From IMG/VR virus record IMGVR_UViG_3300045988_069849, positions 162,273-226,272 of that record: DNA of 64,000 bases. The stretch is one strand, 5' to 3'. The stretch's first letter is position 1. Every line of letters begins with the position of its first letter. Of this stretch, positions 1 through 22,153 are shown one piece after another. The DNA comes from a virus. Under the pieces are notes generated by a model. The model did not search any database. It was not told the DNA's origin and saw only the letters and a program-made list of their open reading frames with translations. Both the position numbers and the translations under genes were made by a program.

Positions 1-11
1 AATCAAGTACT

Positions 12-1313
12 TCAACACTAATTTCTTTTATATCATAGTTATAGTAATAAGTACCGTTCCCAAGTTTTTGGATTGTCTAAGGATAAACGTCCATTTGTAT
101 TCTATTCGGCTCTAACATAAGGTGTTATTTTAAAATTTATAGGAAATTTGTATCTAAGCAAAGAATAGTGTAATCTCCTATTCTTACTTTTAAAATAGTA
201 GGGTTTATTGTTATACATGAAATGTACTCGAAAATGATTGTCATAATCAACAACCTCTACAATGTGAATATATTTATTATAAAACTTAGATATGTTAACT
301 TCTTTTCCATTCCAGTTAGAGAATTTCAATCCAGTTAATTCCTCTACCTTTCTCAGCAAGTTCTTAGAGTTGCAAAATTTCATCCATCCAAAATAAGACC
401 TCATTCTTCTATTCAATTCATCTTTATCAATCTTATTCTATTTATATAGATTTATAAGCCTAAACATCCTCATTTTTATAGATTTTTTCAGTAGAACATG
501 AGTATGATAGAATTTATAGCCTACGAAATCAATACCTCTGCTTTCTACAGGGAATATTTGATAATTAGGCTTCAACTCTAGGTTAAGAACCTGTTTCAAA
601 TATAGTTTTATAGATACTAATACATTTCTCAAATAATTCTTGTCATTACCAAGAATCACAATATCGTCAGCATATCGAAAGTAGTACTTACATTTTAACT
701 CCTCTTTTACCCAGTGGTCAAAATATGTCAGATATAAATTTGCAAAGAATTGTGATAGATAATTTCCAATAGGAACTCCCTTCGCTGAATAAATTATTTC
801 TTTCAACAGTTTTAATAGTTTTTTATCCTTTATCTTTCTCTATAACATTTCGTATAAAATGTCGTGAGTTATAGAAGGATAGAATTTTTTTATATCCATT
901 TTCAAGCAATACTTTGTTTCTTCTGGATGTTTCTATAACACCTTAAACAAATCATACTCTACTTTATGAATACCTCTATTTCGTATAGAGGAATATGTTT
1001 GGTCTATAAATATACTAGTCCAAATAGGCTCCATAATATTCATTATAGCATGGTGAGTTATTCTATCTGGATAGTATGGAAGTCTAAAGATTAATCTTTC
1101 TTTAGGTTCGTATATTATAAAGGTACTATATTCAGAGGTTTGATAAATCAAATCCCTTAACTTATCGGATAATTCCTTATTTTCTTTTAATCTATTCTTA
1201 TCATGCTGCTTGATTCCACATCTAATAGACTTATTTCTTCTAGCTTTATCGTCAGCTAGTTCGATGTTATCTTCAGCGTATACTTTCTCGTGCAAATATC
1301 CTACACGTTTCAA
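12..1313 (-). CDS. DGR reverse transcriptase; one frame read through in-frame TAG codons at 102-104, 438-440, 840-842, 933-935 (and 18-20)
   Basis: ORF-track fragments 933..1313, 438..806 and 102..416 (-) share one frame (lower coordinate = 0 mod 3) and each ends on TAG. The fragments contain RT motifs: RLIFRLPYYPDRITHHAIM (motifs 1-2), GVPIGNYLSQ (DGR-type SQ motif), YADDIVILG (YxDD). N-terminus LHEKVYAEDNIELADDKARRNKS resembles the DGR RT N-terminus. Apparent start is TTG at 1311-1313; putative TGA stop at 12-14. Confidence 0.8.
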
Positions 1314-1450
1314 TTTTTTATATATTTCATCGGAAGCGTTCGAGAATTAACCTACTAACACCCTTCATTCAACACTACGTTATCTTTTGCCTAGAGGCAA
1401 GGATATTACTTAGCAAACTAAAAAAAAATAATAAAATGTTTCTAAATATA

Positions 1451-1556
1451 TAATAACTCGACATTGGAATTGGCATTGCTGACGTCATTGTTAGAATTGA
1501 AATAGCTGAGACCTGCATTGCTGCCATTATTCGCGTTGCTGCCTACTAGCAGTACT
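1451..1556 (-). repeat. DGR template repeat (TR), A-rich in sense orientation
   Basis: A ~105-nt segment between the RT and the target gene. It is homologous to 1656-1762 and to 29043-29140. All ~27-28 mismatches against each copy fall at adenines of this copy, read on the minus strand. Confidence 0.8.
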
Positions 1557-1630
1557 TTTTTGCCAATCAACGGTTTTTAGAAGTAATATCCTACGATTTA
1601 TCATCTAAATCGATTTTTATATTGTATATC

Positions 1631-3448
1631 TTAAGATACTCTATTCAGAGTCCTGAACCCGACAATGGAAGAGGCACCGCCGACGCCACCGTCAGAATTG
1701 AAACAGCCGAGACCCGCACCGCCGCCAACATTCGCGCCGCCGCCCACCCGCAGCGTGCGAAGCGCTGTGCTGCTTGCGTTGCAGTAATGGTAATCGCAAA
1801 TATAAGTAGTAGCACTTCCTCCAACAGCGGATGGAATTATTTCAGCGGTTTCACCTAAGTCAAATGCCTTAATATAACCATCAGATGCTACTTCGTATCC
1901 TGCAACGGTTTTCTCTCCAACTACGTCGGTAAATTCCGATACGTTAGTAGTTGTATAGACAGTGCTAATCTCATTAGCAGCTGCTCTCACTATAACTACT
2001 CCGTCCAGGTTAGTCCAAATGTCTCCAAACGGATTATCGAACCCTCTCCAGCGAGGTACTTTAAATGTATGAGTTGCTACTGTATTTGTGCCATCTTGAG
2101 CTGTACATTCTGGAATAACTAAATCTTTTACTCCAGTGAAGTTACCAAATTCATTGCAGTAACCACAAGGCGTAAGTGGATATGTTGCATTATATCCTGA
2201 CCAACTTGTAGCTGCGTTAGCCCAATCTGTAACTCCAGGTCCCAAACCCCCTTGATGATATCCATCCGCAGTTAACTCTGCATTATATGCAGCCTAAGAA
2301 TTAAAATTAGCATATTCAATGACATAATTCCAGTAGAATATCCATTTGTAATATTCATAGCATAGCAATTCTGAACCAGCATTTGTTGCATATGTTCTCA
2401 TAGTAGCTCTAGAAATATTAGTTCTAGGCTTTCCTAAATCACTTCTGAATATATCCTTAGTTTCTAATTCTGTAGTTAGATAATCATCGTAGTTAGCTCT
2501 ATTTCCTCCACCTCTAAATGCAGTAGTAGTATTAACTACTGATACAGCTTTTGGAGTTGCGGAGACTGTGGTATCAACTGTACTTCTGTATGCATCTATT
2601 AATAGTTCAGGAATTTCTACCCATGAATCATCAATTTTGACAGTAGAAGTTCTAACCCATCTTTTGTTTCCATCGCTGCCAGATTTTCCATAAAATTTAG
2701 GAGTATTAACTCTTACTGTTCCATCAGTTCCATCTAAGACAGATGGAGTTTCTCCGTCTTCTTTATAAGACCAGTCATCTGGAAACAGATAGTAATTTAC
2801 TACATCATTGTTTGCTACACAACCTCTATACGCTGATTGAATAGGAAGAGATTTATGCAGCAAAGGATTACCTATTCTAGTAAGTTCCGGAGATGCTACT
2901 GTAACATCCCATTCTACTCCATAGGAATATAAATCCATATTACTATTTAGCTCAGTAATCTACTTATCAAGCTTTTGTTGTGCCTTCTACAATTCTTCCC
3001 AAGCCTCATTTAGCGCTGTAAATTGCTCTTCTAGCTTAGAACTTGAATCTGCCCATTCAGCAGTACCATCTGCTGAGAAAACTAGCATCTATCCAGATGC
3101 TCCTCCAGATGGAATATGTTTATTTCCAGAAGTAGTTGGATGTACATAATTATTAGCATTATTAGCTATAGTACTTAACTTTTCCTTCTCAGTTTCAGTA
3201 TAATTGGCTTCAGAAAGTCCCTTTCCTAACTCCTTATCTACTTTGCCTTCAAGCTCACCCTTAGTAGCTAATTCACTAATATCCTAATGCTCAGTTAAAT
3301 ATCCACTATCATTCTGTAACTAAGAAGTTTTAGTTGGAATTGCATTAGCCTTGGCATATGTCGTATCTATAACATTTCCAGCACCATCGTAAGTAGCTTT
3401 TAAATCGTATGTGGTTTCCCCAACCTTTATAGATTTGATTGCTGCCAT
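1631..3448 (-). CDS. tail fibre / receptor-binding protein (~605 aa); DGR target with VR1 at its C-terminus; in-frame TAGs at 2294, 2960, 2987, 3089, 3284, 3320
   Basis: One frame (lower coordinate = 2 mod 3) runs from ATG 3446-3448 to TAA 1631-1633, linking ORF-track fragments 2294..2938 and 1631..2245. It contains the conserved tail-fibre motif HIPSGGASG[Q]MLVFSADGTAEWAD, in which the Gln is encoded by TAG. The C-terminal ~35 aa are encoded by the GC-rich VR. Confidence 0.7.
1656..1762 (-). repeat. DGR variable repeat VR1
   Basis: A GC-rich island in an AT-rich genome. It aligns to the TR with ~28 substitutions, all but at most one at TR adenines. It lies at the 3' end of the tail-fibre ORF. 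Confidence 0.8.
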
Positions 3449-3461
3449 ATCATTGTATTAT

Positions 3462-3662
3462 TAAAGTTTCATCAACTACATCGTGATCTATTCCCTCTAT
3501 GGAAGCAGTTAGGTCCTCAACAGCCTTCTACAATTCTGCTTTAGTAGCATAGTTCTTGAGAACTTCCTAGTCTACTCCAGAGCCTCCTCCTATACTTCCT
3601 CCAACAACTTTTACTGGTTTGGCAGAACTCTTAAACTGTCCTTCAATATAAATTGTTCCCAT
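3462..3662 (-). CDS. small late protein (~66 aa), two in-frame TAG
   Basis: Manual translation with TAG=Q gives MGTIYIEGQFKSSAKPVKVVGG... It lies directly upstream of the tail-fibre start. Confidence 0.35.
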
Positions 3663-3689
3663 ATTGTTTAAAATATTAATTGTTCATTT

Positions 3690-5506
3690 TCTCCATCTAC
3701 CTCTACACTAGAACCTGGCTATAAAGCGTCTATCTTTTTCTACAATTCGGCTACGGCCTAGCTAATTAGTTCTTCTACCTCAGCTTTGGTGTAGTATCTC
3801 TCTATAAGATATTCGCTCCTAACATATCCAGTATCTTGTAAATCTTTTTCTCCATAGGTGCAATAATAAGTATCTTCTTCAGTCTTACTATTCTCAACTA
3901 GGTCATCATAATCAGCTTGTGGTAAGCATACAAGTTTTGGTACTTCTTCAGTAATAGCAACTTGCTTGCCTCCAGCAAATAGCCTGTTATCTTCTGTGGT
4001 AAGTTTAACAGAACTCTCAATAACTTGCTCAGTTCCTGTTTCCTCAGAAGGTTCTCCAGTTGTTCCCTATTGTACTTCTTTTTCTCCAATTTTCTAAATA
4101 GTAATATCAGAAGTTTCTACTGATGTAGATTTCAAAAGCTCAGTGCTAAATTCTTTAGCAGCAGCAGCCTAATCATCCTGATATTTTTTCTAGGTAACAA
4201 ATATGAAATCATCATCTCCGGTTTCAGGAGAGTCTCCCCTTAAACTTTCTTTTGTTACGTAATCTTCGGCTATCTAATCTGATAAATCAGATAATGACTA
4301 TTGAGTAGCATAAGTAGACTGAGCATTTTCCTTAGTAAGAAATTTGTCATCAACCTGCTAAATAGTATAATAAGCCTTAATATCTTCTGTAGTAACGTAG
4401 TTTCCAAGTTTTTGCAAACCTTGAACTATTTCATCAATCTACTTCTTGGAGTAATAATTTGTAGCAACCCAGGACTGATATTGATTGGTAGTATGATAAT
4501 TCTAATCCAAATATTCCTTAGTAATATAAACCTTTGCATCATTTGTGACGTCATATACATAGTAATATGTATCAGGCTCTACCGTCCCTTCCTCTACTAA
4601 CTTTAGATACTCTTCTTCAGTTAATGTTACTAAGTTCGGAATATCCGATTCAGTAGCAATCTAATCTTCACCTATAAATAATCCTTCAGACCTAACGTCT
4701 ACTACTAGCTAGCTCTCTCCCTCTACTACAGGAGATTTTATCTATCCAACAGTGATGCTTTCTAAGGAACCATCTCCATCTACCTTAAGAGTTTTATCTA
4801 ACTCGTCTTGGATGGCCTACTAATCTTCCTCATATTCTTTCTTTGTAACGAAGACAAAATCATCTCCTTCCATTCCCTCTCCTCTAAGACTTTCTTTAGT
4901 AACGAAAATATTGTCTGTTTCTTCCTTAGTATAATACTTAGTCAGGGATAGAGCTAAAGAATCATTAGAGACATAATTAGTAGTTAATTCTTCCAGTGTA
5001 GCATAATCTGATAGGCTGGCAATAGTGTTATCTAAGTCTGTTCTAATCTATACTACAGTAGTATTAAGGGCCTTCTGTTTTAATTGCTCTTCTATCTTTT
5101 TTCCCCATTCCGCAGATAGGTAAAACTAGTCATCGTCTAAGCTATCCTCATATATATAATAATATGTCTCAGCATGAAGATACGTTTTACTTTCATCTAT
5201 GGGCCTAAAATCGTCTGTAGTATTCTCAGACCATTCTTTATATTCAGCCTCTGTACAGGTGATTATCTAGATAGATTCATAGGATGCTTTCCATCCTTCC
5301 TTGTATTTAATCTTAGACTTATCAATTAGCATATAAATATTTCCGTTATCTATGTTAGCAACGGTCATACCTTGATAAGCATACTTCTCTGGAATAGAAT
5401 AAAGTTCGTCTAAGTTATTAACGACTGTTCTATTATCGAGAGGCTTCGGAGTTTCTACGGTTAAAGCGACACCTAAGGTAGCATCACCTGTATATTTAAA
5501 TGCCAT
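3690..5506 (-). CDS. late structural gene(s) with internal tandem repeats (DDFVFVTKKEYEED / DDFIFVTQKKYQDD); TAG-interrupted; probably 1-2 genes, internal boundaries unresolved
   Basis: Start is MAFKYTGDATLGV (ORF-track 5267..5506). The track fragment 3898..4089 is in a different frame. Coding is continuous only if TAG is sense. A ~45-nt repeat unit occurs at ~4170 and ~4840. Confidence 0.3.
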
Positions 5507-5507
5507 T

Positions 5508-7080
5508 ATTGTGATAGAATAAAGTTAATTTGATGTGGCAATGCTGAGGAGTAAGTATCTTTCTTAGTCCATACCTTGTAAGTAAATCCATTTATCTACT
5601 CGGTAGACGTTTCCCAACCACTTAGGTCTACATTTAAATATCCAAGTCCCCCATCTACGGTAAATGAATTTAACTATGTGTTACTTCCTGGCAATTTTAT
5701 AATAGCCTTACCACTTAGTGAAAATGTGATAGTTCCAGACGATTGTCCAAAAGGAACTAGCGCCTATTTAATCACACTATCAGTATTACCAGAATACCAA
5801 GGATATGTGGCTACTACCTAAGCGGTAGCGGAAATAGAACCAGCTTCTACTCTCTTATCTGTAACTTCTCCTTTATTGTTTATCAAATATTCTCCAGCGG
5901 CATAACTCACTGTACCAGAGTGAGTATAAGTACCAATAGAATTATATGTATCAGACTCTACAGGAGAACTGTTATAAGTAATAGTTTCTTGTCTGTCAGT
6001 TTCTTCTCCAGCATCATTCTTTATAAATGTAAGTGTAGGAGTTAATAAAGCAGTTCCTACTTCTACTATTTGAGAAGTAAAACTATAATAAAGCTATGGG
6101 TATACTAAATCTCTAACTACTGTTGGAAATAGTAAAGTATCAATAATCTCATTAAAGGGCTTGCCCTTAAGTTTCTCTACTGTAGTCCCTTCAATTACTG
6201 TTGAAGTAGTATCATCTGGGAGTTCTGTCTAATAAGTAGCTATAGTTTCTAAGTTAGTTTGTATATTAGTAATACTTTCAGTATTAGCTTCTACTTTAGT
6301 ATTTGTCTCTTGTTGTGCTTCCTAAGTTTTCTATACTTCTTTCTTTGTTTCTTCTAGAGCAGGTTCAAGATTCTTAACATAGATACCTGGAAGGATAATA
6401 GAAGAGGTTTCCTCTCCAATCTCCTATTCTATTAAATGAATAGCATTATCTTCCTAAGTAGATAAAATCACCTCTAAAGAATTATCTTCCTTTAGTTCTA
6501 TAGTTTTGGAATTTTGGAGACTATTCTTAATCCAATTAAGAATGTTTTTATCAACATCTATATTCTCAATAGCATTATTCAACTCAACTATAGCTTCATT
6601 GATTTTTACTATTTCTTCAGATAGATTATTAATCCCTTTTCTATTAGTATCAATTTCTCGTTGTAAATCCTCCTTCAATACAGATATAGAAGTTCTAATA
6701 TTGCTTATATCGACTTTCAGTTCTTCTATTGCTTCTGTATTAGATTCATATTCACTAATAAAGTATAGGGCATAGTCTAGGGCATCCTTCACAGTATTAA
6801 TACCTTCTGCAACGTCACTAGTATAGGTCCATTTTTGTTCTATATACTATACTAGGTCTTTTTGCAGTTCTATGGTTCCACTAATGTTTCCCCACAATAG
6901 ACTCTACTCATCAGCAATACCTAAGTTCTTTCTTACTTTAGCTTTTTCTAGTTCTGTCCTATATTCTCCTAAATAGTTATTTCTTAAGAGGGGTATAGGC
7001 TCACATTTTATAGGCTTACCCTTTTTACCACAAGGCACTATATCTGCGTTACTTACCGAAGTGTAAATAGACTGTATCAT
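5508..7080 (-). CDS. late structural protein (~520 aa, coiled-coil region; fibre/baseplate-like), several in-frame TAG
   Basis: Start MIQSIYTSVSNADIVPCGKKGKP at 7078-7080. It contains ORF-track fragment 6454..6792 and continues through TAG codons to TAA near 5508. The exact frame was not verified along the full length. Confidence 0.4.
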
Positions 7081-7234
7081 TCTAGTTTAATAATTGCTAT
7101 TTAATAAATTCGTGATTATCTAGTCTTACAGGTAGGTTAATAAAACAAATTAGATTAAGAATATCTTGATAATCTGGTTTATATCCCTTTTTGAGTTTTC
7201 TTAGAAAATCCTCATACCTTTTAATAGCCTTTCT

Positions 7235-7379
7235 CTTAAGAGCATCCACAACCTATACGTTTATGTCCATGGTGGTGATTATCACAGAATCCTCCACAGG
7301 TACGGAACATCGCTAGTAATCTCTCAGCCTCCATGAATTGTTTAAAGCATATTAAATAATCTATAATGTTAAGAGTCAT
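7235..7379 (-). CDS. small Cys/His-rich protein (MTLNIIDYLICFKQFMEAERLLAMFRTCGGFCDNHHHGHKRIGCGCS)
   Basis: Manual translation of a short ORF. Too short for the ORF track. Confidence 0.3.
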
Positions 7380-7481
7380 CCATATGAAATCTCGAGCAAA
7401 TATATCTGCTTCCTAATCTCTAGTTAGACACTTATTTAGTAAAGCATCAAAGAGTTTCTTACAATAATTAATGTAACACTA

Positions 7482-7967
7482 CTACAAGTTTCCTGTAAAG
7501 AAAACATCTACCTTACATTTTTTTATAGTAGTTCCTTCTATGTTTCGTTCAAGAACTTCTTTAACTGTACACTCTTCTAGCTTACCTTCTACTTCTTTAT
7601 ATAATTTTTCTCCATCAGTAACATAGATAGTCTCATAGTATTCCTTGTATTCGTCCGATGAATTTTCATACCATTTCATATTAGGAATAATGATATGGTC
7701 TACTACGTAATAACCATCATCCTTGACCTTAAACATACACGAGTCTAAGTCTTCTGTATGGTCATTAAGTAGGACATCTATCAGAGTAGCATCACTTATA
7801 CTAACTTTGATGATAGTATTCAAGGTAGCACTCTCACTATACTTATAGGAGTCGTAAGAAGTTACTACCTCTACATCTTCATCAATATACTAGCCATATT
7901 CTTTTGAGAAATCTTCTATCAGTATTTCCCCATTAATTTGGGTATGTATATCAATACTAAATTCCAT
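7482..7967 (-). CDS. late protein (~161 aa), one in-frame TAG
   Basis: ORF-track fragment 7482..7823 extends upstream through a TAG to the start MEFSIDIHTQINGEIL. Confidence 0.45.
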
Positions 7968-7980
7968 ATTGTAATAATTA

Positions 7981-8709
7981 AGACTCAATAGGCCACTAGC
8001 CATATTGAGCAGGGGTAGAAAAAGGTTTCCATTTACCTGCTTGTCTTATTCGTCTAGACATGAAGACGGAAGTAAATGATAAACTAATATCTTGAGGATA
8101 ATCTGTCCAGATATAAGAATATCCATCTGGGGTCGGAGGTAGTTTATCTAGTCCAGAAGAAGGCTGACCATTCCAATAGTAGTTATAGTCATATGCCTTT
8201 AGAGAAGTAACTTCTGTAGTTTCTTTCCCTTCAGCATCTATATACAGCGGATTTCCGTCCTCATCTGTTTTCTATTTATATTCTATAACTGGTGTTATTC
8301 CCTCGGTTCTAGTATATATAGTCTATATAATAGTAGAGACATCACTCGCTACTATTTCATAGATAGTAGTTCCCTATGATTCATCAGCTCCCTAAAAAGT
8401 AAATTTAGTTCTTTTCCATATATACGGATTCTCTTCTGTTGGAAGCTCAAAAGTATCAGACCACTACTTACTTGATAATTTTATTTCAGATTCATCGGCA
8501 GTATTAGCAGGGAGATAATGTATTTTAATAATAATACTATTAACTGCTTCACTTGAACCGGATAAATCTGATACCTACTTAAATAATTTTTTTAGGTCGT
8601 CTTCTACATTTGATTTAGAACCGGAAGCATTACTTATAATTACTGTCCCATCAGAGATAGGATAAATCTACTGCTAATCTTTGTTGTATACAATTGTTCC
8701 AGTTGCCAT
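7981..8709 (-). CDS. late structural protein (~240 aa), multiple in-frame TAG
   Basis: Manual translation MATGTIVYNKD[Q]QIYPISDGT... It starts directly after the portal stop. Confidence 0.4.
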
Positions 8710-8710
8710 A

Positions 8711-10882
8711 TTAATGTATTTGTCTTATTTTGTCATTATATGGATTTCCATCATGAAGCTAAGCCAACTCTATTTCAGTTCTTTTTTCTTCAATATCCAT
8801 TTGTCTATCTTTATAAGTAGAATCAGACTGAGCTTTAAGCCAGTTAACTTTATATTCTAACTGCATCTTCTACTATTCTAATCCTAGTCTCTATTCATCT
8901 AAGCTTTCAATCTTTTGCTGAGCTTTCTATAATTCTTGCTATAACTACTGAGCCTATTGAGAAGTTTCTTCTAATTTTTCTTGTAGTTGCTGAAGCTGAT
9001 TATTTTCCTCTTTGCGAACTTGAACAGCTTTCTTAACCTTATATTTAAGGTCTGTCAGACTCTTAGATGTAAGAGCCTCAAAAATAATATCTGGGTCCAT
9101 CTGTTGACTTTTTACGAACTCTGGAATGATTGCTTTTATAGTCTATAGATCTTCCATCACTTCTGAACTAGCAGTAATATGAATATCGTAGTCAGTAACA
9201 GTAAAATACTCAGGAAGTGCGGTGAATATCTGTTGATATTTATCCCCAAGTATAATAGTTCCAGTTAATCCTTTCTTATAAGTAACTTTAGCCTAATTAA
9301 GACTATCTAGTAGTATCTCGCAGGTTATTAAATCCATCTGCTAAAAATAGTGCTTAGTTACTATATACGAGTTAGCTACTCCCTACTTAATATTAGTAAC
9401 TGCATCTCTAGTTTCTATACCGTTAAGTCGTTCCCTAAATACTCCAGTTATTGATGATGTAGTTTGTTCTACTGATTGAATAGCTAATTCAATAGCCTAT
9501 ACAGCCTATGCTTTTAAGGTATCATCAAATCCGTTATATATCTAGTTTGGAGCTTGCTGTCCATCATTCCTACCTTCTTGGCTTGAGTCTATCCACATGA
9601 TACCACCTTTTTTATAGGCTAACCATTTTTGTACTCGTTCTGGCCATTTAACTCCTAAGTTGGTAGGCAACAGAGACATATCCATAATAACTCCGGCAGT
9701 ACCACTATTAGCTATTAGATTATCTCTATAATAGTTTAATAAGTCGTATCTATCCTACAGATGTGCACATTTTAATATAAGAGAATAAGGCTACTAAGAG
9801 CGATTTAAGAAATATACTCCATTTACCGATAAAGAACAGAAGTTGGGATTATCTTTAGATCTCATAACAGTCTTGTCTAATCCTCTAAGAATATATATCT
9901 CTTCTCCTATTCTAATAGTATTGTATCTCTACATCACAAAATCATCATCTGTTTCAATCCATTCAACATCATAGACTGGGATTAACTAGAACCTATGAGC
10001 ACTATATTCATTGTCTGGATAGCCGGGAATGGTTTCATGATTCTAATCTTCATTTACTACTGTACAAGTATCTCCATATACTCTTCTATAAACAGCAGCT
10101 GAATCATCAGCTCGCCATTCATCTTTTAGTCTTCTTAAATCTTCTCTAGATATTTCTTTGCCATATTTAGCTAAAATCTAACTCTTACTCATCCACTTTC
10201 TTACTACAACTCTATATGAGTTCCTTACATATGGAGATTCTGGATTTCTATCAACAAATGTATTAAGTGGGTTTAATACCTCTATTTCAATATTAGTTCC
10301 AGAAGCCGATGATTTCACTCTAAAGAATGTATAACCAGTAATTAATAGGTCTGTTAGTAACTAACGTAACTTAGTAATTAAATCGGTTTCTCTGGATTGC
10401 ATAATATAATGTACTATATTCTAAGCTGCAATTTCATATTGAGAAATAAAGGATTGGTCAATATCCTATATAATTTTATCTAACTAAGTCTTTACAGCTT
10501 TATCAGTAATATCCTTGCCATCAATAAACTTAAGAATTGAATTACTTAAATGGTCTTTCAAAAACTTTACTATTCCCTTGGTTATTTCTAGCTATTTTTC
10601 TCTTGTTATATTACTGATAGTATCTGAATCTTTGCAAGAAATTTTCGGAAGTATAGGAGTTCCTAAATATTCTCCAACTAGAGCATCTACGTGTTTCTTT
10701 AATAAAGGCGTAAACTCTACCGAAGTGGGGCTACCTATTCCGAAGTTTTCTTCCAGATAACGGAACTATTCAGGATCTCTTTTACCATTATAATAATTAT
10801 AAGCTTTCTGTAACTCATACTTATCATATACAAGTTCCGCAATAGCCTCGTTTGTCTTGTCTATCAATTCCTTCTCTTTCAT
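8711..10882 (-). CDS. putative portal protein (~724 aa) with a Q-rich C-terminal coiled coil; about 25 in-frame TAG
   Basis: A single frame runs from ATG 10880-10882 (MKEKELIDRTNEAIAELVYDKYELQKAYNYYNGKRDPE...) to TAA 8711-8713 when TAG=Q. It sits immediately downstream of terL and its size is portal-like. No motif-level proof. Confidence 0.45.
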
Positions 10883-11102
10883 AACATAAATTATGTTGTT
10901 CTGGAGGAAGTTTAGTAGCGTTATAATACTTAACTCTTTGTAACTTCCTACTTCTTAATTCTTCCTTAATAAATGGCAGAAATTCTTCGTCTGGTAAATC
11001 TGCTATTATTACTAATGGCATTTCTGACCTATCAAAGTTAAAAGAGACTTTATACCCAACTGGGTCTAAACTCTCAATATCTAGTCCGCCTATATACTCC
11101 AT
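10824..11102 (-). CDS. possible small ORF in an alternative frame, spanning the terL/portal junction
   Basis: ORF-track 10824..11285 is an uninterrupted 153 codons. It overlaps the terL 3' end and the portal 5' end in a third frame. Only the part downstream of the terL stop could be an independent gene. Confidence 0.2.
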   Translation of the reverse strand: MEYIGGLDIESLDPVGYKVSFNFDRSEMPLVIIADLPDEEFLPFIKEELRSRKLQRVKYYNATKLPPEQHNLCYEREGIDRQDKRGYCGTCI

Positions 11103-13437
11103 TTTGTACAAGTCCCTCATATATTCTAGGATCACTTGTTTCAACTCTGTATGGGTCATCATATTCGTTTCTTTGCATATTAAGTTCAGGAGTTTTCTTA
11201 GTTGGAATAACTCCAAATCTTTTAATTCCTCTCTCGTCGTAATAGTAACCAAAATCTTGGAACTATTCAACTTCTTTCTCCACAAGTACGGGCTGTCTTC
11301 CTGATAGCTCTTGGTCTGCCAACTCAGTCATACCTACAGCGGCTACAATATCATACTTACCCTTATTTTCATCATTATATGCAGTAAACTATTCTAGCAT
11401 TTCTTCGAACCATATAGTATGGCAATAGTCTTCTATAAAGGCGGCTGTTAAATCAGTATGCTATTCAATTATAGTTTTTGTAGCAGGAGTTCCATACTAT
11501 TTAGTAGTTCCATTTCTGACATCAGTTAGAGTAGCTCTTGGGCGCTTCATAAAATAGTTAAGGCATCCTTTTTCTCTAGCCCAAGTAACCATACCCATAC
11601 GAGTAGCTTCTATATTTATTTTACAATTATAATAGCGAGCTAAACACATAGCTATTTTATAGGCTTCTCTGATGTCTCCAGGTCTATCCTTGTACATAGC
11701 AACATACTGAGGGTCATTCATACCAAACGCACGTTTCTTAATCGTTATGCAGAAATCAGACGGATCTCTGGTTTCCTTAGAAGTCTAATTCGCTCCAATA
11801 TCAATACCGTCTATACCTGCTACGTATAAGTCTCGCATCTCTTTATAAACTGGAACTTCAAAATCCTAGCCATTATTTTCTGCTTCCTATCTAAGCTTTT
11901 CCATTTGTTCTTTATATAAGTCAGACCATATTGGATGCTCTAGAATTTTTACTTTACCATTGCTATTAGGAATCCATTTAAAGCCATCAATGTTATCCTA
12001 AGTATGTTTATTATTTTTGTAAAAATAATCAATATAACCACATTCGGGTCTTGGACCAATTTGTTTAAGTCTTATATTAGCTATCTATTCGGCAACTAAA
12101 ATTTTATTAAATTTATTAACACCTTCTAGATTAAATGCTTCTTCTGCATTCCAACAACGTTCAGCACATTTCTTTAGGTAGTCTTCTGGTACAGCTAACA
12201 GATTATCTCGCTCCTCCTATAAGAATTTCTTATATTCTACAGTATTACACACTCCTCTGTGGTCCATAAATTCTGGATTCAAAGATTGTATAAAGTATGG
12301 AATAAAGAATCCACTCTCTATAGTAGTCCCATCCTAAGTCCAATTATGTCTAAATGGAAGAATCTTATATGCTCTTGGATTATAGTAAATCTTTTTTAAG
12401 CCCTCTAGAGGAGCACCCATATCACCGCCAGTACCTCCAAACAACATTGTTCCACGAGGCATACCTTGAACTTCACAAAGTTCTTGACCTTGTACCACAG
12501 CGGTATCAAGTCCAGGCCAGGAACCAGCTTCATCATATATTAATAAATCTACACGGTCTCCACGAATGTTAGATGGTTTAGCTCCGTTAATTGCTACAAC
12601 CTCAGATTTAAATCCTACGTCTTCAAACTAACCATTTATTTTGATTTGTTTACCTGATTTCTTTCTCAAATCCTGGTCAATAAGTCGCAATTTAAAAAAT
12701 CCTCCTCCAGTACAGGTATTTAAGAATGTAAGAGCATTGTCAAACTTACTAAAGGTACCCTTAAGGAAGGTATCATTAAAGCAAGTAATCATAACCCTAC
12801 TTCTTCTAATAACAGAGTACATACGAGCAGAAAGAGAGGCGTTTATTTCAGAGAATCCAATAGAACGAGCTTTCATTAAAGCTGCGTGCTTGTGTAGCAC
12901 TCTAGCCATCTATAGATAATGAAAGAACATATAATGTGATGCAAAGAATATTGGGAAGTCATTATCAGTACCCTCACCAGAGGCTTTCTACTAGTCAATA
13001 GTAGGTAACTAATAGAAATTTAAGAAGAAGTAATTATCTCCAGTAATGGTGTATCCATTAACTGTCATTCCATACTTACATCTTCTATATTGCTCTTTCC
13101 AAAATTCGTTGTACCGCTTACTATCTCTAAGGTAGGGACAGTATTGACCAGTTCGTTTATATACTTCCCTAGTCTCGGTAAACCAATCTGGATTAAAGTC
13201 CAATCCATGAGTTTCGTCAATAGGTCTGTATCCAGTTATTTCATAAGATAAGGTAGGGTCAAATACTTCTATTTTATCTCCTATTTTAACATCCCAATAG
13301 TCAGAATTTCTGACCCTTTCCTCTCTTATTTTCTATACTAATTCTCTAGCTTCTTTAGCATCCTCTTTCTATTCTTTTTCTCTTACCTAATCTACAATAT
13401 TCTATATTTCTTCAGGTAATATCTTTTTTCTTGGCAT
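11074..13437 (-). CDS. terL: terminase large subunit (788 codons incl. stop), ~10 in-frame TAG
   Basis: One frame (lower coordinate = 1 mod 3) runs from ATG 13435-13437 to TGA 11074-11076, joining ORF-track fragments 13009..13203, 12628..12909 and 11497..11721. It contains the Walker B-like LLIYDEAG and an FGGTGGDMG motif. TAG codons sit in sensible positions, e.g. EEI[Q]NIVD[Q]VREKE[Q]KEDAKEARELV[Q]KIREE. Confidence 0.8.
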
Positions 13438-13439
13438 AA

Positions 13440-14006
13440 TTAAAAGTCTCCTGGGTCAAAACCATCCACAGCTCCAGCTCTAACAGTAGATTGTTCAGTA
13501 AGTTCTTTCTTAACCTAGTCTTCTAGTGTTATGAGTTCTTCATGAACTTTGTGAAGGGTAGCCATTTCCTTCATTACTTTTTCAGCCTGGAATACTGGTT
13601 TGCCGTTATTATCACGCTCATTTAAATCTACAATAGTTTCGAAATAATCAATAAACTAGTCTGCAGCTCTTTTAGCTGCTTCTAGTAATTTTATTGACTT
13701 GTTTGAATCTTGTAACGCTCTGTATTTCCTACAAGCTTCTCTAAATATAGGGTCATTAAATTCTGACTCTGTCAATCCAGAATCACTAATAGCTTCGTCA
13801 TGTCGTTCATGTTCCGAATACTAACTGTACGGACTTTTCCAGTCTATAGCTAAATAAATGTAAGATAGTTCTCTAGTAGCTCTATCCTTTTCTGCAGATT
13901 TATCCCTCTAGATTAAAGCCTTAAATTCCTTAACTAGCAATATCTCTGGTTCATTTATTTCTAGCTATTTAGTTAAAGTGTTATAGTTAAATACATTCAT
14001 AATCAT
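13440..14006 (-). CDS. putative terminase small subunit (~188 aa), 5 in-frame TAG
   Basis: Lies immediately upstream of terL. Manual translation MIMNVFNYNTLTK[Q]LEINEPEILLVKEFKALI[Q]RDKSAEKD... The assignment is positional only. Confidence 0.4.
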
Positions 14007-14037
14007 TAATCATTATCATACACATTAGATAATCTTA

Positions 14038-14616
14038 TTATTTCTTTTTCATTTTGGAACCGCACTTATTGACTTTCATTTTGGAACCACAAGCGTCTTT
14101 CTTAGCATATTGTTTTCTGTCAGGAACCCATTTTCCTCCCTGGAAATTACCCTTATGTCCCTTATTGGCCATAGTTTCCTAATCATTGTATTTATTGATT
14201 GATATAGAATCTCTTGAGGCTTCGTCTCTAGCAGATTTCATATCTTTCTTATACTAAGCTCTTCCAGCCTTAAATTTATCAACTTCATTAGCTTTCTTAG
14301 TAACTTTAGTTCCTTTTTGTGCTTTCTGGCAAGCTTTACAGATTCTACCGCCTTGCTTAAAATATACAAGCTCTTCTCCTTCTGGACATACTCCTTTTAG
14401 CTTCTTATAATACTCAAGCTTAGCTCCAAGCCTAGCCATTACTCCTCCTTGCATTTTCTGCATAAATTCCTGATACTTAGCTTTAATGCCGTCTTCTCCT
14501 AATTGTTCAGCATAAGCTTGTAAATCCTATTCAGATTGTACTTGTATTCCCTACGCAGCGGCATCTTGTATTAGATATGCCATAAATGCTTTTTGTAATT
14601 CTTCCTAGTTAGCCAT
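14038..14616 (-). CDS. basic Cys-rich protein (~192 aa), 3 in-frame TAG
   Basis: ORF-track 14254..14463 ends on TAG and continues. Start MANWEELQKAF at ~14616. The C-terminus ...CGSKMKKK ends at TAA 14038-14040. Confidence 0.4.
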
Positions 14617-14826
14617 TACTCTTCTACTTTAATTAAATCCTTAGTATTAAACACTGCTTCCTACATAAGTCCGGAATCAGTAAACCATCTACATCTTAAT
14701 CCTCGTAATCCTTGGTTATCTTTAAATAAAGCTGCTTCTCTTCTTAGAACAAGCATAACTGGAGAATGCATTACTTTACACTACCGTAAAGTAACACAAT
14801 CCCCAGGCTTAAAATAAACTTTTTCA

Positions 14827-15429
14827 TCAATTGTTTCCATACTTCAATTCGTTTCTTCTTTCAGTTAGCTTTTCGTTAACTACAGCCATAATTCTGTTCT
14901 CATTAACTACAACAAATCCAAACTTGTAGAACGGAACCATGCACTCGCTAGCTATTGTATAGAATACTATATCTCCAGGTTTTAGGAACTCACACTTGTG
15001 CCCAACCTCAATAACAGTACCCACTTTAATAAATTGTTGTTCTTCTTCTATTTCTCCTGTTTCATTAGATTTATATGTTGGAGCAAACCCACCTAAGTCT
15101 GTAATTAATCCACTCTTAGTAGTTTTAATTTTTTGAAACGGATTTTGTTCGAAAGGTTTAATTAATGCATACCCATACATAGGCATAATTTCTACACCAT
15201 TCATATCCTCAGATAATGATTTGGCGTAAGATTCTAAAGCTGCATTATGTTTAGAGAATTTATCTTCTAATTCATCTACTGCTGTATTGAATCTTTCCTG
15301 TTTTTCTCTTAATAAAGTTTTATCTGCAGCTTCTCCATTTACTATAAGGTGCTGTCCTGTACCTTCCATACCAGTTATAGCTAGTGCTAGTTTCTCATTA
15401 CTGTTCAATTCTGTTCTTAAAGTTTCCAT
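14827..15429 (-). CDS. hypothetical protein (200 aa), standard code
   Basis: Intact ORF in the track with a TGA stop. Confidence 0.6.
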   Translation of the reverse strand: METLRTELNSNEKLALAITGMEGTGQHLIVNGEAADKTLLREKQERFNTAVDELEDKFSKHNAALESYAKSLSEDMNGVEIMPMYGYALIKPFEQNPFQKIKTTKSGLITDLGGFAPTYKSNETGEIEEEQQFIKVGTVIEVGHKCEFLKPGDIVFYTIASECMVPFYKFGFVVVNENRIMAVVNEKLTERRNELKYGNN

Positions 15430-15530
15430 AATTCATTTTACCATTTACATAAATCACAATGTTCATCTTCTATTCTAGTTTTGTTCTCTAGTATACAACC
15501 ACACTCCTCACATACTTCTCCAAATGAAGT

Positions 15531-15776
15531 CTATAATTTATGAGGACAAGTATTACAAATATTTAATCTTGTGGTTGCTAAATCTTGATTAATTCCAAAT
15601 ATATGGAAATATATACTCTTCAATATTACTAAAGGTTTAGTAAATATTGCTTTAATCCATTTCTTTGGCATCTTTTCAGTAGGTTCTTGAGTCATAAGTA
15701 TATAAGCCTTAGTAGGGTTAGCCATTACTGGAGTCCCATATAGTAATAAATTATTTACCATTTCTTCGCAGGACAA
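15531..15776 (-). CDS. small Cys-containing protein
   Basis: ORF track. Confidence 0.35.
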   Translation of the reverse strand: MSCEEMVNNLLLYGTPVMANPTKAYILMTQEPTEKMPKKWIKAIFTKPLVILKSIYFHIFGINQDLATTRLNICNTCPHKL

Positions 15777-15970
15777 TGCTTCTTCTCATTAGGTATCTTT
15801 AATTCCAGTAGACATCCGCATCCTTTTATATACCCTTCTTTTGGACCAATACTTATGTCATTGTTTTCTGGATTTAAATACAACTGTCCATTACATATTG
15901 CATCTTCTTGATTACATATTGGACAGCGTCTACATATTTTCCATCTTTCTTCTATTTCCTCTAGTGTCAT
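15755..15970 (-). CDS. small Cys-rich protein (CxxC pairs)
   Basis: ORF track; RCPICNQEDAICNG...GCGCLLEL. Confidence 0.4.
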   Translation of the reverse strand: MTLEEIEERWKICRRCPICNQEDAICNGQLYLNPENNDISIGPKEGYIKGCGCLLELKIPNEKKHCPAKKW

Positions 15971-15972
15971 AA

Positions 15973-16887
15973 TTAATATTCAATACGTTGACGTTTCTTT
16001 TTATTTTCTGCCAATATAGATTCTTTCTTGTAAAAAGAAAGCATTCTTATTACTTCATCTTTTAAATATGGTAAGTGATATACTGTCATGTTATCACTGT
16101 GGTCGAAGTGTACTAAAACTAAGTCTTCAATTTCAAATTCTGGGTTTTTCTTCTGAATCATCCAGGCGTAAGTACTTAGCTGAAGGGCATAATGCCAATA
16201 ATTAACATCATCTAAATTATTTAGAGGATACTTCATCTTAACTGATGTCTTAGTTTTAGAATTAAAGAAGCTCTTTGTTTCTATTTTTTTATTAGTCTTC
16301 CAGTCACCAATAATTATCTTATTACCTCTTTTAACTAATAAGTCAATTTGTCCAGCTATTCTTAGTTTTCCGTCCTCAGATACTCTAGAGATTAGATACT
16401 CAGGATATACCCCATTCTCCAAATCTAGATTGTTATAGTCTTTTATACACTCAAACTTGCCACCTATTTGATATTTACTTAGGTCTATATCCTTCTTCTT
16501 TTTGTAAAAAGAGTTTTCCAAATCTGCATGGATTCTAGTTCCTCTCTCGCAAGAGTTTCTGTTCTCCATATCCCATGCATCTAAGATAGCTTGTTGTTCT
16601 TTATTAAACTCGTCTTCTGTAATGTTATGAAGTTCAAGTAGAACTTTGTCAAATTTCTTAGTATTCAGCAGAGATTTTTTCTCGATAGCCCAATCTTCTT
16701 TAGGTAGAAGTTTCTCTAGTGCTTTATAAGCTGACCAGAACTCTTTATCAAAGGGTTGGGTGAAAGAATGAATTAAAGTCGTTACAGATATAAATTTCTG
16801 TTCTGGCTTTGTAACATCATAATAAATATGAGCTTCCTCTTCGAAAGCTATGTTCCCATTTTGTTTTGTAATTTTACTTTTGTCCAT
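15973..16887 (-). CDS. PD-(D/E)XK-family nuclease (RecB/Cas4-like exonuclease)
   Basis: GQIDLLVKRGNKIIIGDWKTNKK matches the D...(D/E)xK core. 304 aa. Confidence 0.55.
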   Translation of the reverse strand: MDKSKITKQNGNIAFEEEAHIYYDVTKPEQKFISVTTLIHSFTQPFDKEFWSAYKALEKLLPKEDWAIEKKSLLNTKKFDKVLLELHNITEDEFNKEQQAILDAWDMENRNSCERGTRIHADLENSFYKKKKDIDLSKYQIGGKFECIKDYNNLDLENGVYPEYLISRVSEDGKLRIAGQIDLLVKRGNKIIIGDWKTNKKIETKSFFNSKTKTSVKMKYPLNNLDDVNYWHYALQLSTYAWMIQKKNPEFEIEDLVLVHFDHSDNMTVYHLPYLKDEVIRMLSFYKKESILAENKKKRQRIEY

Positions 16888-17001
16888 TAGTCATAATTCA
16901 TTTAATCATTTATCACATTTATCTATATTTATTTGATACTTTTCAAGTATATTAATATTCTTTGTAAGATACAAATCAATAAATAATACATTATATTAAA
17001 A

Positions 17002-17345
17002 ATGTCTAATATGACAAAAATGGTAACATTTGGATGTCCAATTTTTAAAAACGGGTCAGGCATTCATATTAAAGAGAAAAACAAAGGTAAATTTACTGCC
17101 TCTGCTAAGGCTGCAGGATAGTCTGTACAGGAACATGCTAAATCTGTACTAAACAATCCTAATGCTACTCCTCTTCAGAAGAAGCGTGCTAACTTTGCTA
17201 GAAACGCGGCTAAATGGAAACACGAAGATGGAGCTAAGATACATAAACCAAGTGGACATAGATCTATTCTAGATAATGGATGGATTCCTACTACTAGATT
17301 AAAGAAAGGAAATTATGGATTAATTAAAACAAGAAAGCAATGAAC
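17002..17345 (+). CDS. small basic protein with one in-frame TAG (plus strand)
   Basis: Manual translation MSNMTKMVTFGCPIFKNGSGIHIKEKNKGKFTASAKAAG[Q]SVQEHAKS...KTRKQ. Confidence 0.4.
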
Positions 17346-17418
17346 GCTGTAGTTAAATTAATTAAAGAATTTATACTTAAGATATATCTTTATTTACTAT
17401 TTATATTTAATAAGTAAT

Positions 17419-17610
17419 ATGGACTATAATAGAGCAACTCTTTATGCGGCTACTGGTCGTACTTTATTACTCCCTGGCTGGAAAGGGTATTTTTATTGGG
17501 ACTATACTAAGAATGAATTAAATTTTAGAAATGGAGACTATCATTTAGATAACAAATAGCTCAAGGAGAAAGGAGTTATGGAACGTAATGATTGGTATTA
17601 TATAATATGA
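17419..17610 (+). CDS. small protein with one in-frame TAG
   Basis: Manual translation MDYNRATLYAATGRTLLLPGWKGYFYWDYTKNELNFRNGDYHLDNK[Q]LKEKGVMERNDWYYII. Confidence 0.3.
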
Positions 17611-18043
17611 TAATTAAAAATAATATTATACCGTTTGGAGGTTATAAAGTAATTAATCTGTTTGGATTAATATTTACTAAGTCGGATTTGACTGATGAGG
17701 ATAAGAATCACGAGAATATCCATTCAGTATAGATTTTAGAATGTGCAATAGCGTTTGCAATACTTATATCTATATTATTTGGATTAGAATGGGTATGGTT
17801 AGCTATTCCATCTTTCTATATCTGGTATGGATTAGAGTATTTAATTATACGACTATTAAGACTTAAAGATTCTCAAAATGATTGCTACAGAGATGTAAGC
17901 TTTGAAGAAGAAGCTTATATGAATGAAGACAATTTACAGTATCTAGAAGGATAGAGAAAGATGTTTTCATGGATAAAATATCTAAAAGTTAATGCATAAC
18001 AAAATAGGCGAACTTAGACAATTAAGTCTAGGCTCGCCTATTT

Positions 18044-18601
18044 TTATTTACTATTATACGTACAAGTGATTCTGTTTGGCTCTTCCCACCAAGGTTTATC
18101 TGAAAGTGGAGTTCTGATGCTATTGGGCCAATTTATAATTGGAGTAGTTTCCTCTACTATAGCCTCCATTATTTTAAATAATGTATCCAAGTCTAGCTCT
18201 GGAAGCAGCTCATGAATATTAGTTATTGTTTTCTTATAATTTATCATACCTTCAAAAGTGTCGTTAATAATTGCTTTCTCTATTGTAGTATCTTTATATA
18301 AACCATGTTGTAGTATATTTCTTACTTGATGGTCTATTTGATTCCATATATCTAATAATATAGAAGAATCATCTGAAAGACTATATTGTGGATAGCTAGC
18401 CCTTAAACTGCTAAGTACTTTGCCATTAATGTAAATGTCAAATACGAAATTTTTTATATCATCTGTAGTTTCTCCAGAAATTCCTGCAGCTCTTTGTAAA
18501 AGTTTAAGAGCCTTTTCATATACTTCTCTTTCTTCACGTTCTCTTCTTGAAGAATTAAACATCATCATATTTGCGGCTACTGACATATTAGTACGATACA
18601 C
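18044..18601 (-). CDS. hypothetical protein (185 aa)
   Basis: ORF track. Confidence 0.5.
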   Translation of the reverse strand: MYRTNMSVAANMMMFNSSRREREEREVYEKALKLLQRAAGISGETTDDIKNFVFDIYINGKVLSSLRASYPQYSLSDDSSILLDIWNQIDHQVRNILQHGLYKDTTIEKAIINDTFEGMINYKKTITNIHELLPELDLDTLFKIMEAIVEETTPIINWPNSIRTPLSDKPWWEEPNRITCTYNSK

Positions 18602-18750: not shown

Positions 18751-19065
18751 TCAATCAAGTTTAACATAATCCATCCAGTCTTTTATATATGATTTACATT
18801 CTTCCAAATCTGGATAGATACTTGTTATAGAGCATCCAGTTTTCGGATTTTTAAAGTGGTGCATCTTAGCCTCTTCTTTTTTCTCCTCTTCTGTATTTCT
18901 ATTTAATGTTCTATTCCAATAGTTGTACTTTTCATCTAACATTTCCATATCACATTCCTCTAATATTTTCATATTAGGGTTATTCATTATCTTGTCGTAC
19001 TTTCTCTTTAAATTAGAGACTTTGACAACATCATTTCCATTTAATACAACTGCACACTGTTTCAT
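18751..19065 (-). CDS. hypothetical protein (104 aa)
   Basis: ORF track. Confidence 0.5.
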   Translation of the reverse strand: MKQCAVVLNGNDVVKVSNLKRKYDKIMNNPNMKILEECDMEMLDEKYNYWNRTLNRNTEEEKKEEAKMHHFKNPKTGCSITSIYPDLEECKSYIKDWMDYVKLD

Positions 19066-19292
19066 TTCAATACCTTATAAGTACATATCTTGCCTATCTG
19101 TTTTCCTTGAATTGTTATTTGCGGAAGAAAATAGCAGGCTTGATTCTCAAATTCTTGAGGTACAAAGATATAATCAAACTTACTTCCAACTACCTTCTCA
19201 CAAACTTTATTCCAATCGTCTCCCTCTTCTATAATAAGAGTTTTAGCTCCTGTTGGAGTTACTACATAATTCTCATTTAATTTTATCATAAC
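19062..19292 (-). CDS. hypothetical protein (trimmed; the track ORF N-terminus is the tRNA)
   Basis: ORF track 19062..19364. The first ~24 residues overlap the suppressor tRNA. The likely real start is MIKLNENYVV. Confidence 0.35.
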   Translation of the reverse strand, partial: VMIKLNENYVVTPTGAKTLIIEEGDDWNKVCEKVVGSKFDYIFVPQEFENQACYFLPQITIQGKQIGKICTYKVLK

Positions 19293-19306
19293 TATTAATT
19301 TTGGCG

Positions 19307-19378
19307 TTGCCCTACTAGGATTCGAACCCAGACTAAATGATTTAGAGTCATCTGTGCTGACCATTACACCATAGGGCA
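19307..19378 (-). tRNA. amber suppressor tRNA, anticodon CUA (reads UAG), tRNA-Gln-derived
   Basis: Cloverleaf: acceptor tgcccta/tagggca, D-arm gtgt-aatggtca-gcac, anticodon stem gatga/tcatt with loop CUCUAAA (positions 34-36 = CUA), variable tagt, T-arm ctggg-ttcgaat-cctag, discriminator A. D-arm and T-arm are nearly identical to tRNA-Gln(UUG) at 34205-34276. Confidence 0.8.
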
Positions 19379-19383
19379 GTAAC

Positions 19384-19918
19384 TTATTTCTCTTTTAGAG
19401 ATTTATTTTCTGCTGCCAATTTCTCTAGTTCTTTTCTTAATTGTTCATTTTCGTGAAATAAAGCCTGCATAGTAGCGTTGATACTAGCTAATAGTATTCT
19501 CATTTGAGCAACCTATTCATACATAAGCTTTCAGTTGTTCAATTCTCTTTTTAGCTATATCTGACAATGCCATTTTGAATTTAGCAATACCAGCTCTTAC
19601 TGTTTCTAACTTGCCGCTTTCTAAGCATTCTTGTATTTTATGAACTTCAAGCTCTCCTAGATATTCGCATACATCTATAAATAAATCATCATCTAGAGAT
19701 TCTAAATATTTCTGGAATTGGTCTACCTCTTCATTAGCTAGACAGCTTTCTTCCTTCTATCTTTCATAAGATATTAATAAGAACAAAGAATCGTCGGTAG
19801 ATTCGGACTTAATAGTTAGCCCATTACCAGACATATAATATTCTTGATTCGTATTAATTGCCTCAACTAGCTATTTAAACTAGTCCTAATTTAACAATGT
19901 TTCTAAGTCTGTAATCAT
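19384..19918 (-). CDS. TAG-containing gene upstream of the suppressor tRNA (possible regulator; ~177 aa)
   Basis: Manual translation MITDLETLLN[Q]D[Q]FK[Q]LVEAINTNQEYYMSGNGLTIKSES...; at least 8 in-frame TAG. The frame was not verified end to end. Confidence 0.35.
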
Positions 19919-20236
19919 AATTGTTTTCTTTTTAGTTATATACAACAATAACCTCCGAAAAGTTAAACGCAAAGTTAAAAAATTCTAATTCAAATATTAT
20001 ACATATTTTATATATTAAGGGGAAAGCCGGTACAGGTACTTTATATAAATAGCCCCCTGGGGTTATTATAAATTCCGACTTTTATATTTGGAGGGCAATT
20101 ACCTAGATTCCAAAAATTCATAGAGTGAGTGTAGTGGCGGTCCACAACCCCTTTAGTCCCCCCCTGTATATTGATATAAAACTAAAACAAAAACAAAAAT
20201 CAATTTCCAGTATTAACATTTTAAAATTTTAAGATT

Positions 20237-22097: not shown

Positions 22098-22140
22098 GGT
22101 TTAGAAGTGAAACAGAAACCAGCACTTTTTAGTAACTTAT
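22098..22140 (+). terminator. hairpin plus T-run (intrinsic terminator-like)
   Basis: gctggtttagaagtgaaacagaaaccagc followed by acttttt. Confidence 0.35.
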
Positions 22141-22153
22141 AAACTTTTATAAT

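Follow-up and report, generated by a model that had tools for sequence, protein, structure and literature searches.

The reverse transcriptase gene and its retroelement

The stretch analyzed here, referred to as the window, comprises 64,000 nucleotides (nt) of the IMG/VR virus record IMGVR_UViG_3300045988_069849 (positions 162,273 to 226,272). At its left end, on the minus strand, lies the reverse transcriptase (RT) gene of a diversity-generating retroelement (DGR), and the reading frame of this gene holds four in-frame TAG (amber) codons. The gene occupies 39-1313 and consists of 424 codons, from a TTG start codon (1313-1311) to a TAA stop codon (41-39), as determined from the translation, a Pfam match and a match to a PDB structure. 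An earlier note on this DNA had given the interval as 12-1313. The right edge agrees with the TTG at 1313, but the left edge lies 27 nt past the real stop codon at 39-41. The TAGs that were listed in the same note, at 102, 438, 840 and 933, are exact, and the gene contains no other stop.

The RT was compared with 84 related RT loci. The first TAG in the direction of translation is codon 127 (933-935, minus strand), where the column of the relatives reads TAG in 29, AAT in 12, AAA in 10, AGG in 6 and CAG in 5, together with others. The second is codon 158 (840-842, minus strand), which is kept as TAG in all 35 recoded relatives of at least 83% identity and is CAA in some relatives at 66-72%. 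The third, codon 292 (438-440, minus strand), is CAA, a glutamine (Gln) codon, in the 10 relatives that make up a clade at 90.6-93.2% identity with extra TAGs. The fourth, codon 404 (102-104, minus strand), is AAG or GAG in relatives with the conserved ...DPKTWERYLLL tail, and the tail of 20 residues that follows this codon (42-101) is conserved.

No stop-type codons other than the four TAGs occur in the RT frame from the upstream TAA (1347-1349) to the terminal TAA (39-41), and neither a TAA or TGA nor a frameshift was found within the 424 codons. About 26 TAA and TGA codons would be expected per 424 codons at the local base composition, and the probability of finding none is about 3e-12. This indicates that the open frame is not due to chance. 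A Pfam RVT_1 match (E=3e-19) covers residues 76-267 and spans two of the TAGs. The best match among solved structures is chain 8ub7_A, named 'Reverse transcriptase', of 328 amino acids (aa), which we take to be the bRT of Bordetella phage BPP-1; the match (E=1.2e-44) covers residues 43-329 and spans three TAGs. The DGR-type GxxxSQ motif is present as IGNYLSQ (residues 182-188; 750-770, minus strand) and aligns with IGSLTSQ of 8ub7_A. The YADD catalytic motif (residues 214-217; 663-674, minus strand) lies 3' of the first two TAGs. The NCBIfam scan of the RT returned only sub-threshold group II intron, retron and Drt RT models, and no DGR-specific model was matched.

The TTG start is conserved among the relatives, and most homologues begin with MKRIGY at this point. 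An upstream ATG (1335-1337) was considered as the start and rejected, as it does not share the RT frame in the window or in the majority of relatives and is absent in those at 70-74% identity. Just 5' of the RT start, the A-run at 1314-1319 (minus strand) is A5, A6 or A7 among close relatives, and only the A7 variants bring the upstream ATG (MKYIKK...) into the RT frame. This polymorphism could be homopolymer sequencing noise or real variation in the start context.

On the minus strand, a 605-codon tail-protein gene with a variable repeat (VR) is followed by the template repeat (TR) and then by the RT. The TR was located by repeat comparison at 1455-1560 (minus strand). The variable repeat VR1 (1656-1753, minus strand) forms the 3' end of the tail-protein gene and ends 23 nt before its stop codon. 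It is 74% identical to the TR, and the mismatches in its core all fall at TR adenines. The tail protein itself (1631-3448, minus strand, six in-frame TAGs) matches phrog_5302 with E=1.9e-83, and no CLec-type domain was found in it by Pfam. The second VR is located at 29035-29140 on the plus strand, within a TAG-free open reading frame (ORF) of 186 aa at 28698-29258. It differs from the TR at 24 A and 4 non-A positions and lies about 27 kb away, on the opposite strand, in a block of tRNA and auxiliary genes. No Pfam family was found for the protein of this ORF, and its likeness to the tail protein is confined to the VR-encoded stretch. Both the tail-protein target and the second target that had been proposed are thus real.

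With RVT_1, the GxxxSQ and YADD motifs, adenine-specific differences between TR and VR, and the ongoing VR variation described below, the sequence features assign the RT to a DGR. No Avd gene was detected: no ORF is present between the VR and the RT, and ORFs of 117 aa and 73 aa on the 3' side of the RT, examined in the relative L001, gave no Pfam match; a divergent Avd is possible. The conserved spacer between the TR and the RT start contains a hairpin, CCTTGCCTCTAGGCAAAA (minus strand), at 1385-1402. Just 3' of this hairpin, the spacer sequence TCTCGAA(C/A)GCTTCC is shared by relatives with RT identities as low as about 72%. Both are candidate DGR-RNA elements.

Amber codons, glutamine and suppressor tRNAs

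The first TAG, at codon 127, precedes both the GxxxSQ and the YADD motif. Termination at this codon would leave a fragment without both catalytic motifs, so that full-length RT needs a suppressor. In a rival reading, the gene is decayed or misassembled, with the TAGs being true stops or sequencing errors and the RT a pseudogene. Such a reading draws on the splitting of the ORF under translation table 11, with table-11 gene callers reporting a 334-aa piece (P0006 and P0007). However, among 16 independent assemblies with an RT identity of 97% or more, which come from ENA, Logan and several IMG/VR metagenomes, 15 have all four TAGs at identical codons, and the sixteenth (L036), whose alignment ends at codon 311, has the first three. 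The recurrence of the TAGs in independently assembled relatives indicates that they are not sequencing errors. The ratio of nonsynonymous to synonymous substitution rates (dN/dS) is 0.04-0.15 against the seven relatives for which it was computable, and it is the same 5' and 3' of the first TAG. Together with the absence of TAA, TGA or a frameshift and with the diversification of the VRs in the lineage, these values leave decay or assembly error hardly credible. The RT is intact and under purifying selection 3' of the TAGs.

The activity of the DGR was followed through its repeats. The VRs were different in all 12 genomes compared, with a mean divergence of 17%, and the RT regions of these genomes differ by 0.65% on average. 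The variability fell on 25 of 30 TR-adenine columns and on 6 of 68 other columns, and the TR was constant. Similarly, the TR is invariant or shows 0-1 base changes in most relatives. The DGR has thus seen recent activity in the lineage with these four TAGs, which requires that they are decoded in vivo and that the RT is made. In two relatives, L006 (3759-3864) and L037 (3756-3861), the repeat found where the TR should be has six A-to-G/T changes, although the TR is otherwise invariant. This is either a mutagenised TR or an assembly in which TR and VR reads were mixed.

The residue inserted at TAG was deduced from the alignment columns. The Q column of GxxxSQ (188) reads CAA in 54 relatives, CAG in 12 and TAG in 19, and column 252 reads CAA in 58, CAG in 14, TAG in 12 and CGA in 1. 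Over the TAG columns, Gln is the most enriched residue (3.7-fold). The relatives hold CAA, CAG, AAA, AAG, GAG and others at the four TAG sites of the window, which are variable K/Q/R/N/E, surface-type positions. Clades at 83-93% identity carry 3-9 RT TAGs at partly different codons, and TAG is present in at least one genome at 30 RT alignment columns. According to the earlier note, replacement of TAG by CAG in relatives would be a sign of sequencing error; an exchange between TAG and CAA or CAG was partly seen, and it speaks for Gln decoding instead. Judged by these columns, TAG stands for Gln. In two relatives, L013 (RT codon 310) and L017 (codon 334), TAG is found where nearly all others have TGG (Trp), and TGA is found there in one other genome each. 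These could be deleterious variants, errors or an indication that suppression is not strictly Gln-specific.

Two tRNA(CUA) genes are present in the window. The first, at 19306-19378 (minus strand), was detected by ARAGORN and scores 66 bits with the Rfam tRNA model. Its identity is 78% to the tRNA-Gln(UUG) of the phage at 34205-34277 and 51-64% to the other tRNAs compared, which identifies it by sequence as a paralogue of the phage tRNA-Gln. The second, at 21667-21738 (plus strand; ARAGORN, Rfam tRNA 56.5 bits), lies in the TAG-free tRNA-rich block and is divergent, with 59% identity to tRNA-Gln and 64% to the first tRNA(CUA). A RAGATH-14 RNA (184.6 bits, gathering score 149.1) was found by Rfam at 21467-21638 (plus strand), ending 28 nt 5' of the second tRNA(CUA); no mention of RAGATH-14 was found in the literature searched. 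This structured RNA before a suppressor tRNA may have a bearing on the control of the code switch. HDV-like and theta ribozymes beside the suppressor tRNAs, an idea taken from PMC10879173, were looked for in 18900-22200, and no Rfam ribozyme match was found even at E<=1; RAGATH-14 alone turned up in this search. Neither a phage release factor nor a glutaminyl-tRNA synthetase was found among ten plus-strand proteins scanned, the matches being to SPFH, AAA ATPases, NAMPT, OmpA-like and radical SAM proteins.

The RT TAGs were then compared with the coding of the surrounding genes. At least one RT TAG is present in 45 of the 48 related loci with TAG-recoded flanks and in none of the 36 loci with unrecoded flanks, although the loci are phylogenetically non-independent and such 2x2 counts overstate the statistical support. 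The comparison spans several lineages and two kinds of recoding (TAG and TGA); the TGA-recoded relative L052 carries three in-frame TGA codons in its RT. Similarly, of the 31 IMG/VR contigs of the TAG-RT clade, 28 carry a Gln-type tRNA(CUA), as recognized by its D-arm and anticodon pattern, and none of the 22 contigs whose RT is TAG-free carries one. The three TAG-RT contigs that lack the pattern are partial contigs. Across these loci, the RT TAGs appear together with flank recoding and with the suppressor tRNA, and they were probably acquired along with the recoding of the surrounding genes. That active RT needs amber read-through, as had been proposed, is upheld by the position of the first TAG before both motifs, by the two tRNA(CUA) genes in the window and by this co-variation. 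In relatives at 66-74% identity, this region follows the standard code and shows the same VR-TR-RT layout and adenine-diversified VRs, with no TAG in the RT. This indicates that the DGR works without the supposed gate.

Recoding of the virion block and the timing of the RT

The window falls into two blocks. The TAG-recoded virion and packaging block (1 to 14840, minus strand) contains TerL, portal, tail genes and the DGR. TerL (11074-13437, minus strand) has 20 in-frame TAGs and portal (8711-10882, minus strand) has 28, and both have full-length PHROG matches. The tRNA and auxiliary block (20237 to 63824, plus strand) contains 28 of the 29 tRNA genes of the window, and its larger ORFs are without in-frame TAG and agree with the standard code. 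Reading TAG as sense raises the total length of ORFs of 100 aa or more from 44 kb to 77 kb.

In the virion block, TAG accounts for 117 of 233 Gln-type codons. The share in the RT (4 of 10) does not differ from that in the other 11 virion-block genes (113 of 223; Fisher p=0.54), and it differs from 0 of 214 (p=2e-6) in a comparison set of 27 larger ORFs (24 from the plus-strand block and 3 on the minus strand at 14827-18586) that were picked from those free of in-frame TAG. TAGs do occur in several of the smaller ORFs on the plus strand, so the value of 0 of 214 describes the larger genes and not the whole block. The neighbours of the RT, namely TerL, portal and tail genes, carry 4-28 TAGs each. 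In relatives, TAG also occurs in the three genes that lie past the RT (products of 117 aa, 73 aa and about 2170 aa), which places the RT within the recoded block and not at its edge. Since the DGR is inside the recoded block, the RT carries TAGs at the same rate as its neighbours.

These results point to a roughly 185-kb, crAss-like gut phage, most similar to the Zeta group, with virion and packaging genes in code 15 (TAG = Gln), and it is probable that the RT TAGs are a by-product of the recoded gene set and not a dedicated device. In the mechanism proposed, the phage would supply tRNA(CUA), including at least one copy derived from tRNA-Gln, and the charged tRNA(CUA) would out-compete release factor 1 (RF1) of a host that is presumed to use the standard code. 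Read-through at codons 127, 158, 292 and 404 would then yield the full RT of 424 residues. The RT would copy the TR RNA into adenine-mutagenised cDNA, which would replace VR1 and VR2. By its sequence, the synthesis of the RT is necessarily limited to a translational state with TAG as a sense codon. The suppressor is presumed to be active only from mid or late infection, and RT synthesis would therefore be late. Transcription probably places the RT late already, given the strand and block that it shares with the virion genes.

The earlier note had gone further and held that the TAGs couple mutagenesis to the recoding switch. As a dedicated gate, the RT TAGs would be maintained by selection to hold back mutagenic cDNA synthesis until the code has switched, which would tie diversification to the phase of virion-gene expression and genome packaging. 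The RT is indeed untranslatable before suppression, and codon 158 is TAG in every one of the 35 recoded relatives mentioned above although the clades have reached a synonymous divergence of about 1 or higher. Recoded stops, both TAG and TGA, have been gained by RTs in several lineages, and a general model of late-gene regulation exists (10.1101/2021.08.26.457843). However, TAG is no more frequent in the RT than in the neighbouring genes, the four TAGs are at variable positions, and the TAG sites turn over between clades, with the 30 columns described above. Standard-code relatives diversify their VRs without any RT TAG, the location of the RT on the virion strand and in the virion block means that transcription alone probably sets its lateness, and the second target sits in the TAG-free block. 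A dedicated gate is thus unlikely, and a dedicated coupling as put in the note is not supported, given the equal TAG share, the recoded genes beyond the RT and the TAG-free DGRs of standard-code relatives. It is likewise doubtful that the TAGs serve as a timer or sensor, with RT and mutagenised cDNA appearing only after tRNA(CUA) overrides host RF1. If they did, a translational layer would be added to DGR control, and VR replacement would be limited to replicated genomes shortly before they are packaged or to cells where the switch succeeded. A phage with an RT in which TAG is changed to CAG would then mistime its diversification and lose fitness.

The TAGs might otherwise act on the amount of RT rather than on its timing, with incomplete read-through at four TAGs and the TTG start keeping the enzyme scarce. 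The conservation of the TTG start in relatives agrees with such attenuation, and every TAG would be a point of competition with RF1. However, portal (28 TAGs), TerL (20) and a 612-aa protein of the virion block (20) are needed in the same cells, so the read-through per codon is presumably near 1 and four TAGs would cost little. The TAG density of the RT (0.94 per 100 codons) is also the lowest of the 12 recoded genes of the virion block. Attenuation is therefore very unlikely.

Several points, besides the shared ancestry of the loci compared above, weigh against the by-product interpretation. The ratio of TAG to CAG in the late block is 3.8:1, against 2.0:1 for the neutral comparator TTG:CTG, and some selection for TAG in late genes is possible. 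The times at which the suppressor acts and the RT appears are presumed, as are the host and its genetic code. The tRNA(CUA) at 21667-21738 could be expressed from the start of infection. With one suppressor tRNA in the TAG-free, tRNA-rich block, a late suppressor is an assumption. The phage would most resemble the Zeta group by genome extent, architecture and a weak TerL similarity.

Signals of transcription were also searched. Promoter and terminator scans of 1-4000 gave 25 sigma-70-like sites where 16.7 were expected, and these are spread over both strands. In the whole window, the Bacteroidetes-type -33/-7 pattern was matched once, with 2.9 matches expected. With signals this uninformative, no transcription unit can be defined and the timing of the RT cannot be deduced from them.

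Other features of the window touch on the code switch. Four plus-strand genes (22154-22657, 42469-43059, 44863-45555 and 45994-46446) apparently end in TAG, with TAA or TGA 2-8 codons further on. Such ends would be expected if TAG terminates early and is read through later, and it looks as if these tandem back-up stops would limit the damage once TAG is read through. An ORF at 44022-44570 (plus strand) with helix-turn-helix and HNH endonuclease-like features carries five in-frame TAGs inside the otherwise TAG-free block, and it recalls the recoded homing endonucleases within early genes of the preprint of Borges et al. (10.1101/2021.08.26.457843). At the head of the minus-strand block, an ORF of 133 codons at 19517-19918 (minus strand) carries four in-frame TAGs and has no Pfam match. 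It lies 5' of the tRNA(CUA) at 19306-19378, and about 4.5 kb of TAG-poor genes separate it from the TAG-rich virion genes. A transfer-messenger RNA (tmRNA) match at 43323-43887 (plus strand) reached 62 bits in Rfam (gathering score 47) and covers the full model over 565 nt, and none was reported by ARAGORN. It may be a phage tmRNA-like gene, possibly with an insertion.

Comparison with known phages and retroelements

The placement of the phage was examined with several searches. The RT is 73% identical to a 414-aa RT of a Caudoviricetes metagenome-assembled genome among the third-party annotation records of GenBank, whose cluster is found on contigs of about 184 kb, and near-identical relatives of the present RT are found on contigs of 184-192 kb. 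For TerL, tblastn returned two unannotated records at 43-44% identity, and the best annotated records after these were crAss-like phages at 25-29%. The genes for the major capsid protein and RNA polymerase are outside the window. A near-identity DNA search with window positions 1-8000 against 50,697 deposited phage records gave no match, and the phage thus lacks a close relative among them.

Yutin et al. 2021 (PMC7886860) described the recoding of TAG to Gln in late genes, with phage suppressor tRNAs, in crAss-like phages, among them the Zeta group of 145-192 kb, and PMC9523058 gives proteomic support for TAG as Gln in crAss-like phages. The model in which recoding times the translation of late genes was put forward in the preprint of Borges et al. 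(10.1101/2021.08.26.457843). Neither PMC7886860 nor this preprint mentions DGRs or reverse transcriptases. Amber suppression in seven DGR RT genes of Zeta crAss-like phages was published in 2025 (PMC12386605); most of the Zeta DGRs there are without Avd, and the timing or gating of the DGR is not discussed. The amber-recoded DGR RT described here is a further instance of this published phenomenon. The regulatory reading is a reasonable corollary of an existing, hypothetical model, but the RT is not set apart from its recoded neighbours by any of the present results.

The RT has consequences for annotation and for the biology of the lineage. Gene callers and DGR finders that use the standard code split or miss the RT, and a 334-aa fragment is among the database entries. 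Since standard-code annotation breaks the RT, DGRs in recoded gut phages are under-counted, a point that was also made in PMC12386605. The active DGR is in vivo genetic evidence for TAG decoding in this uncultured lineage, and the codon usage of the RT places it in the class of genes that are translated after the code change.

Compared with the Zeta phages of PMC12386605, the phage here shares a genome of about 175-190 kb, 20-34 tRNA genes and tRNA(CUA). Its DGR is similarly located in the virion block, with a tail-fibre target, a GxxxSQ RT and, as in most of them, no Avd. Two differences were found: the RT here has 424 aa from the TTG, against a maximum of 414 aa in PMC12386605, and a second VR is present here in a TAG-free block, whereas several TR-VR pairs are reported there only for Lera and ct1yV3. 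As in the code-15 crAss phages (PMC7886860; 10.1101/2021.08.26.457843; PMC9523058), in-frame TAG occurs mostly in the genes for virion structure and packaging. Other features shared with code-15 phages are TAG-free large replication and auxiliary genes, a phage-encoded suppressor tRNA and the alignment of TAG with Gln.

The canonical DGR is that of Bordetella phage BPP-1 (bRT/Avd/TR/mtd). The DGR of the window has the same order of VR, TR and RT, the same adenine-specific mismatches between TR and VR, and the SQ and Y[AM]DD motifs. Unlike the BPP-1 DGR, it has no detected Avd and no room for one between the VR and the RT, about 95 extra C-terminal RT residues, a TTG start, four TAG sense codons and two targets.

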